NCBI GenBank assembly: GCA_964016885.1
Contig: OZ024743.1
Location: 300,266,001-300,330,000 of the forward strand
DNA length: 64,000 nt
Reading direction: 5' to 3'
DNA from: Eledone cirrhosa
Taxonomy: Eukaryota
Below are positions 33,700 to 40,824 of this stretch, piece after piece. A program made the position numbers and the translations under genes. The notes beneath the pieces are model-generated. The model saw only the letters and a program-made list of their open reading frames with translations. It did no database searches and was not told the origin of the DNA. Every line of letters begins with the position of its first letter. The stretch's first letter is position 1.

Positions 33700-35055
33700 C
33701 ATATATATATATAAAAAAAAATATATATATATATATATATATATATGTATATGTATATATATATATATATATATATATATATATATATATATATATATAT
33801 ATATATATATATATATATATATATATATATATATATATATATATATATATATATATATATATATATATATATATATATATATATATATATATATATATAT
33901 ATATATATATATATATATATATATATATATATATATATATATATATATATATATATATATATATATATATATATATATATATATATATATATATATATAT
34001 ATGTTACTTGCTCCTATTACCCACACTATTACCCCAAGTATTGAGTACTTTGGTGCGTTATGGTCCACCCGGTTCCTTACCACATTTCGTTCGTTATATA
34101 TATATATATATATATATTTATATGTAGTATAAGTAATTTGTAATACGTACTGTGTATATATATACATGCAAAATATATGAATGTGTAGAGAATAATTGCT
34201 TGTTCGTACCATGCATATGTATATAAATGCAATGTAGTGTTGTGTATACATACATTTGGTAGTTATTCTGGAGGTTAGTCACACCAGTAACTCCAGACTT
34301 TGGTCCGTACATTTATTGACATATAATGTCACATATATATATATATATATATATATATATATATATATATATATATATATATATATATATATATATATAT
34401 ATATATATATGTATATATATATAGTATACATATATATATATATATACATACATATACATATACATATATATATACATATCTATATATACATATACATATC
34501 TATATTATGTATATGTATAATATATATATATATATGTATATAAATATGTATACACACATATGTATGTGTATATATATATACCTATATATAAATATGTATA
34601 CACACACACACAAACACATGAATATATAATATATATATATAAATATGTATACACTCATATATGAATGTGTATATATATATATGTAAATATATATACACAT
34701 TCATATATGAGTGTATACATATTTATATATATATATTATATATTTATGTGTGTGTGTGTGTGTGTGTGTGTGTATACATATTTATATATAGGTATATATA
34801 TATACACATACATATATGTGTGTATACATATTTATATATATATATATATATATAAATATGTATACAAACATGTATGTATATATATATACACATATATGTA
34901 TGTATGTACGTATATATATATATATATATATATATATATATATTTATATATATATATATATATATATGTATATATATATATATATATATATGTATATATA
35001 TATATATATATATATATATATATATATGTATATATATATATATATATATATATAT
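33700..35055. repeat. Long (TA)n-dominated microsatellite field with short pLTR-like inserts
   Basis: Seen directly; includes about 250 bp of pure (TA)n. Confidence 0.95.
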
Positions 35056-35610
35056 AAATGAGAGGTATAGAGATTGTTTTAGCGAGAAGCTAACAGCATT
35101 CTATAACATATATGCGACTATAACGTCAAGATGGGAAAAGTAGTTCAAAAGAGAATCAGGATACAAATTCATCCACAGAATTTAGTGCAATCCAGGGAAA
35201 AATCAATAGACCTTTAACTCATGATAACATAAAGTTTAAAACACTTATCCTTCAATTTGGAATAACATCAAATGATCTGTATAGTCTTAAAAGACTATTT
35301 CATGAAAACTGTCAGTGGAGATGGTCACAGTTGGATTTCATTCATCAGCAGAGCTCAACAGAAAACCAGGGCTCTCACAGTATTATAATCCGAAAAAGGG
35401 AATTCTAAAACTGGCTAGTTCGCCATCATGTGATATGAAAAAGCACATGGGGAAAAACGGGGCTAGTGACGTCAGGATGTAAGTGAATGTTTATTTACAA
35501 GAAATAGCAGTCAAATACATTCTGAAAAAACTCTACAAAAGGAGTTCAGCAAAAATAGCAATAATTATCACAGTTTTTATGAAAAGAACCGGGATTATAA
35601 ACCGGGTTAT
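35055..35610 (-). mobile_element. Inverted, diverged copy of the 628-bp HHR monomer (HHR family D at 35274-35354)
   Basis: Reverse complement of ~38650-39228 with several substitutions and a small deletion. Confidence 0.9.
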
Positions 35611-35689
35611 ATATATATATATATATATATATATATATATATATATATATATATATATATATATATATATATATATATATATATATATT

Positions 35690-38503
35690 TATAGTAGAAT
35701 AATCGAGTATCGAAAAATCGGCGCACGAGTTCACGATAAACAAAATTCGAGATGAGCGGCAGAGGGCTCCATAATTCAAATAAATTAGAGCTATAACTAT
35801 CGTTAAAATACCGTCACACGTAGAATATGTCTACAATCAACCAAATAACCGAAAAGTTCGATATGGAAGATTCGGGACACTCAGATAAATTATCAATAAA
35901 TCAATAAATGAAATGAATGTAAAATGCATACCCGGACCCACTAGAGAGATGGAATATCTAGCTTCTTGGGTTTCTGTAAATCCTTAAACCGTCATCTATC
36001 AGCTCATATAAAAATATAAGCCTTACAGATAATCGGGGGACTGGAGTTACTTCATCAACGAGCTTCGTCCGAATGGATAAAAAGATAAGACCCAGGCTAA
36101 AAATACGCACATGGATTTCAGCAAGGGAGATAACCTTTATATCCGCAAAAATATTCGGAAAAATGTGACAAAAACACATATCGAATAAGAGTGCTCAATA
36201 GACATGTTAAAATAAACAGGGGCTATTCATCATTTAATAGAATCATAAAATTAACTGGTCAATAGCTAAGTCTAGAGCTAAATATAGTAGAATAATCGAG
36301 TATCGAAAAATCGGCGCACGAGTTCACGATAAACAAAATTCGAGATGAGCGGCAGAGGGCTCCATAATTCAAATAAATTAGAGCTATAACTATCGTTAAA
36401 ATACCGTCACACGTAGAATATGTCTACAATCAACCAAATAACCGAAAAGTTCGATATGGAAGATTCGGGACACTCAGATAAATTATCAATAAATCAATAA
36501 ATGAAATGAATGTAAAATGCATACCCGGACCCACTAGAGAGATGGAATATCTAGCTTCTTGGGTTTCTGTAAATCCTTAAACCGTCATCTATCAGCTCAT
36601 ATACAAATATAAGCCTTACAGATAATCGGGGGACTGGAGTTACTTCATCAACGAGCTTCGTCCGAATGGATAAAAAGATAAGACCCAGGCTAAAAATACG
36701 CACATGGATTTCAGCAAGGGAGATAACCTTTATATCCGCAAAAATATTCGGAAAAATGTGACAAAAACACATATCGAATAAGAGTGCTCAATAGACATGT
36801 TAAAATAAACAGGGGCTATTCATCATTTAATAGAATCATAAAATTAACTGGTCAATAGCTAAGTCTAGAGCTAAATATAGTAGAATAATCGAGTATCGAA
36901 AAATCGGCGCACGAGTTCACGATAAACAAAATTCGAGATGAGCGGCAGAGGGCTCCATAATTCAAATAAATTAGAGCTATAACTATCGTTAAAATACCGT
37001 CACACGTAGAATATGTCTACAATCAACCAAATAACCGAAAAGTTCGATATGGAAGATTCGGGACACTCAGATAAATTATCAATAAATCAATAAATGAAAT
37101 GAATGTAAAATGCATACCCGGACCCACTAGAAAGATGGAATATCTAGCTTCTTGGGTTTCTGTAAATCCTTAAACCGTCATCTATCAGCTCATATAAAAA
37201 TATAAGCCTTACAGATAATCGGGGGACTGGAGTTACTTCATCAACGAGCTTCGTCCGAATGGATAAAAAGATAAGACCCAGGCTAAAAATACGCACATGG
37301 ATTTCAGCAAGGGAGATAACCTTTATATCCGCAAAAATATTCGGAAAAATGTGACAAAAACACATATCGAATAAGAGTGCTCAATAGACATGTTAAAATA
37401 AACAGGGGCTATTCATCATTTAATAGAATCATAAAATTAACTGGTCAATAGCTAAGTCTAGAGCTAAATATAGTAGAATAATCGAGTATCGAAAAATCGG
37501 CGCACGAGTTCACGATAAACAAAATTCGAGATGAGCGGCAGAGGGCTCCATAATTCAAATAAATTAGAGCTATAACTATCGTTAAAATACCGTCACACGT
37601 AGAATATGTCTACAATCAACCAAATAACCGAAAAGTTCGATATGGAAGATTCGGGACACTCAGATAAATTATCAATAAATCAATAAATGAAATGAATGTA
37701 AAATGCATACCCGGACCCACTAGAAAGATGGAATATCTAGCTTCTTGGGTTTCTGTAAATCCTTAAACCGTCATCTATCAGCTCATATAAAAATATAAGC
37801 CTTACAGATAATCGGGGGACTGGAGTTACTTCATCAACGAGCTTCGTCCGAATGGATAAAAAGATAAGACCCAGGCTAAAAATACGCACATGGATTTCAG
37901 CAAGGGAGATAACCTTTATATCCGCAAAAATATTCGGAAAAATGTGACAAAAACACATATCGAATAAGAGTGCTCAATAGACATGTTAAAATAAACAGGG
38001 GCTATTCATCATTTAATAGAATCATAAAATTAACTGGTCAATAGCTAAGTCTAGAGCTAAATATAGTAGAATAATCGAGTATCGAAAAATCGGCGCACGA
38101 GTTCACGATAAACAAAATTCGAGATGAGCGGCAGAGGGCTCCATAATTCAAATAAATTAGAGCTATAACTATCGTTAAAATACCGTCACACGTAGAATAT
38201 GTCTACAATCAACCAAATAACCGAAAAGTTCGATATGGAAGATTCGGGACACTCAGATAAATTATCAATAAATCAATAAATGAAATGAATGTAAAATGCA
38301 TACCCGGACCCACTAGAAAGATGGAATATCTAGCTTCTTGGGTTTCTGTAAATCCTTAAACCGTCATCTATCAGCTCATATAAAAATATAAGCCTTACAG
38401 ATAATCGGGGGACTGGAGTTACTTCATCAACGAGCTTCGTCCGAATGGATAAAAAGATAAGACCCAGGCTAAAAATACGCACATGGATTTCAGCAAGGGA
38501 GAT
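35690..38503. repeat. 593-bp near-identical tandem array (~4.75 copies) embedded in (TA)n
   Basis: Units start at ~35690, 36283, 36876, 37469 and 38062; the ORF track repeats every 593 bp. Confidence 0.97.
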
Positions 38504-38893
38504 ATATATTTATATATATATATATATATATATATATATATATATATATATATATATATATATATATATATTATATATATATATATATATATATCATTTA
38601 TATTTATACTCGGATTCTTTTCCTAGATTGCTTAAACTATCTGTGACTAATCCCGGTTTTTTTCATAAAAACTGTGATAATATTGCTATTTTGCTGAACT
38701 CCTTTGTAGAGTTTTTTTTCAGAATGTATTTGACTGCTATTTCTTGTAAATAAACATTCACTTCCATCCCGACGTCACTAGCCCCGTTTTTTCCTCATGT
38801 GCTTTTTCATAAATACACACGAAGGCGAACTAGCCAGTTTTAGAATTCCCTTTTTCGGATTATATTACTGTGAGAGCCCTGGTTTTCTGTTGA

Positions 38894-39521: not shown

Positions 39522-39603
39522 GCTCTGCTGATGATTGAAATTCCAACCGTGGCCATCTCCACTGAAAGTTTTCATGAAATAGTATTTTAAGACTATACAG
39601 AGC
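39522..39603 (+). ncRNA. Hammerhead ribozyme family D (one stem III mismatch)
   Basis: Same fold as 38894-38975. Confidence 0.87.
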
Positions 39604-40148
39604 ATTTGATGTTATTCCAAATTGAAGGATAAGTGTTTCAAACTTTATTTTATCATGAGTTAAAGGTCTATAGATTTTCACTGGATTTTACTAAATTCTG
39701 TGGATGAATTTATATCCTGATTCTCTTTTGAGATGAGTTTGATTTATTTTTCCTAAATCTTTCGTTAACTACTTTTCCCATCTTGACGTTATAGTCGCAT
39801 ATATGTTATAGAATGCTGTTAGCTTCTTGCTAAAACAATCTCTATACCTCTCATTTATATTTATACTCGGATTCTTTTCCTAGAGTGCTTAAACTATCTG
39901 TGACTAATCCCGGTTTTTTTCATAAAAACTGTGATAATATTGCTATTTTGCTGAACTCCTTTGTAGAGTTTTTTCAGAATGTATTTGACTGCTATTTCTT
40001 GTAAATAAACATTCACTTCCATCCTGACGTCACTAGCCCCGTTTTTTCCTCATGTGCTTTTTCATAAATACACATGAAGGCGAACTAGCCAGTTTTAGAA
40101 TTCCCTTTTTCGGATTATATTACTGTGAGAGCCCTGGTTTTCTGTTGA

Positions 40149-40230
40149 GCTCTGCTGATGATTGAAATTCCAACCGTGGCCATCTCCACTGAAAGTTTTC
40201 ATGAAATAGTCTTTTAAGACTATACAGAGC
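40149..40230 (+). ncRNA. Hammerhead ribozyme family D
   Basis: Same fold as 38894-38975. Confidence 0.9.
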
Positions 40231-40824
40231 ATTTGATGTTATTCCAAATTGAAGGAAAAGTGTTTCAAACTTTATTTTATCATGAGTTAAAGGTCTATAG
40301 ATTTTCCCTGGATTTTACTAAATTCTGTGGATGAATTTATATCCTGATTCTCTTTTGAGATGAGTTTGAGTTATTTTTCCTAAATCTTTCGTTAACTACT
40401 TTTCCCATCTTGACGTTATAGTCGCATATATGTTATAGAATGCCGTTAGCTTCTTGCTAAAACAATCTCTATACCTCTCATTTATATATATATATATATA
40501 TATATATATATATATATATATATATATATGTATATATATATATATATATATATATATATATATATATATATATATATATATATATATATGTATATATATA
40601 TATATGTATATATATGTATATATATATATATATATATATGTATTTATATATACACACACACATATATATAAATACACATATATACACGTGTGTATGTGCG
40701 TGCGTGTGTGTTTGTGTGCGTACTAGTTGAAGCAGTGGTGGAGTCAGTAACACCAGTAGTATAGATGTAACCATAGAAGTGGTAGCAGTAACAGCAACAG
40801 AAGCCGTGCTAGTGGCCTCCTCAT

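Follow-up and report, generated by a model that had tools for sequence, protein, structure and literature searches.

A dispersed, ORF-less hammerhead repeat inserted into (TA)n: a candidate circular-RNA retroposon probably moved by Penelope-like elements

Metazoan retrozymes lacking long terminal repeats (non-LTR retrozymes) have been described as units of 150-450 bp for which circular RNAs and cleavage are demonstrated and for which rolling-circle reverse transcription is put forward as a hypothesis (PMC7229834), and a preprint by Li, Clavereau and Pollet (2026, bioRxiv 10.64898/2026.07.22.740005) presents such elements as non-autonomous derivatives of Penelope-like elements (PLEs) with lengths of 51-972 bp. 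PLEs of the Hydra clade, in turn, target (TA)n, and a U.U mismatch often opens stem II of their hammerheads (PMC8557442). How retrozymes re-enter the genome and why PLEs retain hammerheads are both stated as open questions in the literature. Here, we analyzed a window of 64,000 nucleotides from the 3.0-Gb genome of Eledone cirrhosa (C4:300266001-300330000), which is rich in (TA)n and in broken PLE open reading frames (ORFs) and which contains three head-to-tail repeat units with one type I hammerhead each, designated family A; a second tandem array, designated family B, lies beside them. As an evenly poised judgement, the triplet constitutes one insertion of a dispersed ORF-less hammerhead repeat, the RNA of which is likely cut, circularized and copied by a PLE into (TA)n.

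The family A triplet comprises the following features:

38598..39226, plus strand: family A unit 1, 629 bp; a (TA)n tract and 4 nt (TCAT) left from a prior unit precede it
39227..39854, plus strand: family A unit 2, 628 bp, the reference monomer
39855..40481, plus strand: family A unit 3, 627 bp, ending at the fixed 3' junction of the family, ...CTCTCAT/TTA(TA)n
38502..38608, no strand: (TA)n that separates the A triplet from array B, both of which face it with their 5' ends
40483..40684, no strand: (TA)n that adjoins the A triplet at its 3' junction
38894..38975, plus strand: type I hammerhead 1, predicted cut after A38969 (H17), U.U at the base of stem II
39522..39603, plus strand: type I hammerhead 2, predicted cut after A39597, stem III lacking one pair
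40149..40230, plus strand: type I hammerhead 3, predicted cut after A40224

Monomer positions refer to unit 2, in which the cut follows position 371 and the 3' end is position 628. The near-identity of the three monomers, noted in an earlier sequence-only reading of this locus, amounts to 98.3-98.9% relative to the middle unit, and the differences are star-like: eleven are singletons, no subset is shared, and one variant (326G) is common to all three units and recurs at four other genomic matches, all of them 84-96%-identical copies of other subfamilies. The unit has a GC content of 33-34% and, as the same reading had stated, no coding capacity, the longest ATG-initiated ORF in the circularized unit being 37 aa on the plus and 45 aa on the minus strand; its impression that the unit is long for the class does not hold, as 628 bp falls inside the 51-972 bp of Li et al. 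2026. The circularized monomer folds better than any of 40 shuffled sequences (z -3.4 and -4.4), with 60-61% of its nucleotides paired. Each unit further contains the palindrome TGACGTCA (38772-38779, as a variant; 39398-39405; 40026-40033), part of which is kept by older subfamilies; we take it to be CRE-like, and it is a possible internal promoter element.

All three hammerheads share the layout GCTCTG-CTGATGA-41 nt-GAAA-stem III-TA-CAGAGC with the triplet AUA. The earlier claim of one complete type I hammerhead per monomer thus stands for stem I (GCTCTG/CAGAGC) and the core, while stem III has 7 bp instead of about 8, including A15.1-U16.1 and closed by a 4-nt loop, and is broken in unit 2, where C>A at monomer position 358 removes one pair. 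Monomeric cleavage of family A RNA, which the same reading had suggested from the stable stem III, is possible at most, as the folded stem is a near-palindrome. In an older family A subfamily, stem III is reduced to a palindrome with a 1-nt center, which resembles the Hydra PLE hammerheads listed by Craig et al. (PMC8557442). The local hammerhead folds are not better than those of shuffled sequences (z -1.16, -0.07, -1.16 and +1.22), and the covariance-model scan proposed for confirmation gave no hammerhead match in Rfam at the gathering score and none at E<=10, a miss that the long stem II likely explains. Together with a weakly predicted stem II, these results leave the hammerhead call to rest on the motif and on covariation. 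Across 25 copies from subfamilies 72-100% identical, collected with a pattern that fixed stem III, pairing is kept in 97.6% of cells, and two-sided changes occur at three pairs: G-C/A-U in stem I (8 copies), U-A/A-U in stem I (2 copies) and C-G/U-A in stem II (2 copies). Controls with slid pairings yielded no two-sided changes. Moreover, the free core position N7 is occupied by T, C or G, GAAA is intact by eye in 28 of 30 copies of a further subfamily found with a search fixing the 5' half only, and the distance from the cut to (TA)n is mostly 251-263 nt across family A subfamilies. Judged by these substitutions, the family A ribozyme fold is under purifying selection.

Family A is dispersed throughout the genome: A 29-nt word from its hammerhead has 817 exact matches and its 3'-end word followed by TATA has at least 874, with no match for the reversed or other control, and patterns for older subfamilies have 687 and 221 matches in sets that may overlap. 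At all 60 loci chosen via the 29-nt word the piece ends at position 628 and is followed by (TA)n, with scattered 5' ends; two of these loci also contain an inverted piece ending elsewhere. A fixed 3' end combined with scattered 5' ends is the signature of target-primed reverse transcription, and we infer that the fixed junction at the end of the unit is where reverse transcription starts. RNA continuing past this junction reads TTATAT, which matches the target. Among 138 complete arrays, selected for ending at 625-628, 126 are followed by TTATATAT and 102 have TA at the 5' flank too; because the junctions sit in (TA)n, any target-site duplication, which in non-LTR retrozymes exceeds 4 bp when present, would be hidden. 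A layout of LTR, body and LTR was not seen in dispersed multicopy family A, where primer-binding sites and polypurine tracts were not searched for. An apparent accumulation of 5' ends at position 579 proved to be an artefact of the low-complexity filter, the unfiltered ends lying at 540-564. At three loci (the 5' flank of L028, L020 and L021) the last 10-14 nt of the unit are repeated among (TA)n, which suggests repeated abortive priming.

PLE ORFs are abundant in this genome. They carry the Hydra motifs RWR, DKT, CxCx5C, CxxC and CxH; tens of thousands of first-look candidates were found, and many copies have open frames of 713 aa and of ~808 aa. Pfam did not recognize the PLE proteins, and a protein-cluster search returned reverse transcriptase, GIY-YIG and HTH_animal clusters, which serve as leads only; the putative assignment to the Hydra clade is based on the motifs and on likeness by eye to a supplement alignment. 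In one Hydra-type family, a hammerhead with an 81-nt stem II lies 229 nt ahead of the (TA)n junction, a 3' geometry similar to that of family A (257-259 nt) and family B (241 nt), and a motif scan found no hammerhead in the 3' region of the 713-aa family. Taken together, this analysis makes it likely that Hydra-clade PLEs mobilize family A; the mobilizer may instead be an enzyme of the Neptune or Naiad type, which likewise favor microsatellites. A partner pattern derived from the loose end of a contig had no matches, and a second pattern retrieved only another ORF-less A subfamily. Within the window, PLEs are represented by the following copies:

42561-46812 and 53404-58648: two Hydra-type PLE copies, both broken, accompanied by 5'-truncated partners in inverted orientation; relatives have intact frames

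A GIY-YIG endonuclease fragment at 41314-41853 (plus strand) has no Pfam match; from its motifs we take it to be a Neptune-like PLE.

Measured from the fixed 3' end, family A insertions (97 of the first 100 3' ends listed; one censored, two perhaps segmental duplicates) have a median length of 283 nt; 49 of the 97 run past the cut and 19 are longer than one unit. The fall-off is 4.0 per kb over the first 120 nt and 1.6-2.5 per kb thereafter, and around the cut it is 1.8 per kb, two of 51 insertions ending at 247-268 nt where about 2.5 were expected (95% upper bound 12%). Deletions at 366-377 are absent from all 174 units that span the cut, as are gaps at the cut from 116 aligned full units. 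A linear cleaved monomer primed at position 628 would cap the complementary DNA at 257 nt; consequently, the template is continuous across the ribozyme, for which we prefer a ligated circle, with an uncleaved multimer as the alternative. Neighboring units disagree on subfamily markers in 8 of 1387 comparisons, where random pairing would give 375, which speaks for one template type per array. A conserved catalyst and a seamless template are compatible with a ligated circle, and also with an uncleaved multimer in which cleavage is slow or gated by protein. We hold a circular RNA template of family A to be about as likely as not. Of the earlier description as a candidate retrozyme yielding circular RNA, the first part is supported by the genomic evidence: a dispersed, ORF-less repeat with in-phase multimers and a covarying hammerhead points to a non-LTR retrozyme, probably PLE-moved. 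By its sequence, family A falls under the genomic definition of non-LTR retrozymes, a class already known, and it is very probably a retrozyme-type non-autonomous PLE passenger.

The proposed cycle would begin when a copy containing two or more hammerheads is transcribed by read-through. Each unit is predicted to cut itself after A371, in a fold under purifying selection, and would release ~628-nt monomers, which may then be ligated to the self-paired circle computed above. A GIY-YIG endonuclease, putatively that of the PLE, would nick (TA)n, and the freed end would prime at the fixed RNA site ~257 nt past the cut, as marked by the observed junction; the RNA beyond this priming site would read UUAUAU, matching the target. 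The reverse transcriptase would pass the cut site and circle again, with about two fall-offs per kb giving 5'-truncated pieces and in-phase multimers of the lengths recorded. Some arrays would grow later through local duplication, as seen at some loci.

Several observations weigh against this cycle. Stem II starts with a U.U mismatch and has a helix probability of 0.08-0.2 versus 0.97-0.98 for stem III, the reverse strand of the family A circle also outfolds its shuffles (z -2.6), and the covariation counts are not phylogenetically independent, so that kinship among copies makes them overstate the number of events. No homology of family A or family B to PLE 3' regions was found (blastn and nhmmer on 338 loci and the window, 72 distinct regions, with many PLE families outside the sample); because of this the partner is named from target, geometry and ribozyme style only. 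In vitro, one of nine predicted Xenopus retrozyme dimers was cleaved (10.64898/2026.07.22.740005), and the main substrate of Poseidon, a PLE of Anolis, was uncleaved RNA, its hammerhead mutants inserting normally (PMC11167929); by this precedent a seamless template need not be a circle. Long potential multimer templates exist, namely 12 units at C4:63.98 Mb and a ~28-kb array of an older A subfamily with ~635-bp units (C2:378113911-378141815), which has the appearance of satellite-like local expansion. Periodic variants in the arrays L072, L211, L215 and L216 point to local duplication, and no source-daughter pair sharing at least two rare variants was found in the 138 arrays.

In L072 (C1:203696080-203706079) the units alternate, and every second hammerhead has A6>G. 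Dimer circles in which one hammerhead is dead were considered as the source of this ABAB array and of L215 but set aside, because the 3'-most units break the period, which fits local duplication.

A possible though less probable template is the uncleaved linear multimer: Reverse transcription would start internally at a unit junction, the hammerhead, being slow or protein-gated, would trim ends or act late, and array length would be restored by local duplication. Such a template predicts the same fixed 3' end, the same missing accumulation at the cut and the same homogeneous arrays as the circle; it has the in vitro precedent of Poseidon (PMC11167929), and both the weak stem II with its U.U and the existence of long arrays and local duplication agree with it. 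It requires, however, that cleavage stays below ~12% per site, yet the fold is kept by compensatory changes in ORF-less lineages 72-85% identical. Furthermore, daughters would never be longer than their source although the median insertion is 283 nt, and the variants private to entire arrays (a 15-bp deletion in B, 326G in the subfamily of the triplet) would need unseen, already homogeneous sources. 

Linear cleaved monomers would also explain the conservation of the hammerhead if the reverse transcriptase jumped precisely from the 5' end to a 3' end at the cut, and end-to-end jumping is known for some non-LTR reverse transcriptases. We consider this improbable in view of the lacking 5'-end excess at the cut (the two of 51), of the 0/174 deletions there and of the absence of subfamily mosaics (8/1387). 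About as little credit is due to the notion that an autonomous PLE family exists whose copies with an ORF escaped sampling and whose 5'-truncated 3' ends, as pseudo-LTR (pLTR) multimers, make up the copies seen, which we regard as quite improbable: A minority of copies was inspected and the geometry matches a Hydra-type PLE 3' region, yet at the sampled loci family A is not joined to a PLE ORF. All copies longer than one unit (19/97) continue into the previous unit and never into an ORF, and where a PLE fragment on the same strand lies less than 2 kb upstream, at six loci, a TA run of 12-124 nt always intervenes. Least probable of all is spread as a satellite at the DNA level with the hammerhead as an inert relic, for which local and segmental duplications involving copies do exist (L291), but which is opposed by the covarying fold and by signatures of retroposition: the 3' end is fixed, 5' truncation is graded, and the 5' part is occasionally inverted. 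The 1.4-kb spacing in L291 itself was rejected as a candidate, being a segmental duplication that includes the flanks.

Between the triplet and an inverted A-family copy lies the array of family B (593 bp x ~4.7, minus strand), which the sequence-only reading did not mention:

35692..38503, minus strand: family B array of four complete 593-bp units plus one partial unit, with no sequence relationship to family A
36523..36656, minus strand: variant hammerhead-like junction with UUGAUGA core, 77-nt stem II, GAAA and GUC triplet, predicted cut after 36528
ending at 35930, 37116, 37709 and 38302, minus strand: equivalent copies of this junction

Elsewhere family B is dispersed with 607-616-bp units, and the 15-bp deletion of this array occurs in no other. 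The minus strand is the sense strand because of the fixed end of family B, and its motif reads GCUCG-UUGAUGA-77 nt-GAAA-CCC...GGG-UC-CGGGU, with (TA)n following 241 nt past the cut. The three-way junction is the unconstrained minimum-energy fold, by a modest standard (z -1.85; 10 of 200 shuffles are as good). The pattern has 318 genomic matches and none in controls; among the matches listed, 100 of 100 have U at core position 3. The 3' strands of stems I and III, which were not part of the search, are intact at 30 of 30 loci, and the 5' strand of stem I is lost through truncation at one locus. No covariation was seen in stems I and III at these 30 loci, so that the family B ribozyme is less certain than that of family A. 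A natural hammerhead variant with U3 in the core is mentioned in PMC7151607; if the family B junction is a ribozyme, it would be a natural hammerhead with a U3 core and a 77-nt stem II, overlooked by Rfam. Family B would work like family A. For the two families jointly, we tentatively propose, a little short of an even judgement, that they are recently active circular-RNA retroposons, copied from one start site into (TA)n by rolling-circle, target-primed reverse transcription through a Hydra-clade PLE.

The inverted copy reported alongside the triplet is indeed inverted A-family sequence; it is, however, a separate, 5'-truncated insertion of ~540 bp from another subfamily, 3 kb away:

35058..35597, minus strand: family A insertion of another subfamily, 88.5% identity, 5'-truncated, with a ~36-nt internal deletion and its own (TA)n tracts
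35354-35274, minus strand: hammerhead of the inverted copy, predicted cut after 35280, stem I mismatch
33701..35056, no strand: tract rich in (TA)n that adjoins the inverted A copy at its 3' junction
35608..35693, no strand: (TA)n separating the inverted A copy from the array B 3' junction

Other hammerhead families populate the window as well. Between TA tracts at 4595-4637 (plus), 12381-12423 (minus) and 12795-12837 (minus) lies a tandem family of 414 bp whose minimal hammerhead has CTGACGA and a palindromic CTAG stem III; a short hammerhead family with stem III TATATA occurs in inverted arrangements at 22597-22652 (minus), 22818 onward (plus), 58834-58889 (minus) and 60651-60712 (plus); and a further one (CTGAGGA, stem III CCACTGG) is found at 24278-24335 (plus). 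In 1.28 Mb of sampled sequence, hammerhead-like motifs fell into about 20 groups, several of which have a stem II of 40-95 nt. Scans based on Rfam overlook long-stemmed hammerheads, of which the window holds at least five families. At 15857-19189 and 48161-51317 (both minus) lie broken Rep/helicase frames, presumably Helitron-like, and an 860-aa reverse transcriptase frame, presumably LINE-like, both labels following from their motifs. Contigs from four of five sequencing runs of unrecorded type contain the family A repeat, which is uninformative on expression.

What family A adds to the known class is (TA)n targeting, a mapped start site and a length record that counts against the linear cleaved monomer as main template. 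A literature search that mostly excluded subscription papers retrieved no report on this family or on the mapping of retrozyme insertion ends, and within the same limits none on (TA)n targeting, a mapped start site or an insertion-length record for retrozymes. If the circular template is correct, this length record would be a genomic footprint of the so far hypothetical retrozyme life cycle, and a single genome supplies both the template and intact candidate enzymes for reconstitution. As one genome combines young, nearly identical copies, a defined target and a mapped priming junction with intact ORFs of the Hydra type, circle and linear multimer can be directly tested against each other.

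Among described systems, the non-LTR retrozymes of PMC7229834 share with family A the ORF-less tandem units with a type I hammerhead each, a GC content below 50%, a self-paired predicted circle and co-existence with PLEs, and the U.U at the base of stem II recurs in axolotl HHR_Amex2. Family A differs from the retrozymes described there in its 628-bp length, its (TA)n target, its 3' junction mapped ~257 nt past the cut and its 41-nt stem II, and it is known from genome sequence alone. The elements of Li et al. 2026 (10.64898/2026.07.22.740005) are similar in that their length range includes family A and that they are dispersed as monomers, dimers and multimers; they are homologous to Xenopus PLE termini, whereas for family A no homologous PLE end was found and the candidate mobilizer is of the Hydra clade, and the main text of that preprint reports no analysis of insertion ends. 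The MRC1 and non-autonomous Chlamys elements (PMC8557442) are likewise PLE passengers with multicopy head-to-tail insertions, but these are green algal, resemble known partners at their 3' ends and, as described there, mostly lack hammerheads. Poseidon of Anolis (PMC11167929) also combines target-primed reverse transcription, a fixed internal RNA site downstream of the hammerhead and AT-rich targets; it is autonomous, its start site is described as not homologous to the target and its hammerhead is dispensable in vitro, whereas the family A junction shares TTATAT with its target. Although families A and B have no ORF and far longer stems II and III than the Hydra-clade PLEs in File S2 of PMC8557442, family A has in common with these PLEs a type I hammerhead in sense orientation near the 3' end (~100-260 nt), a palindromic stem III, insertion into (TA)n and both 5' truncation and inversion.

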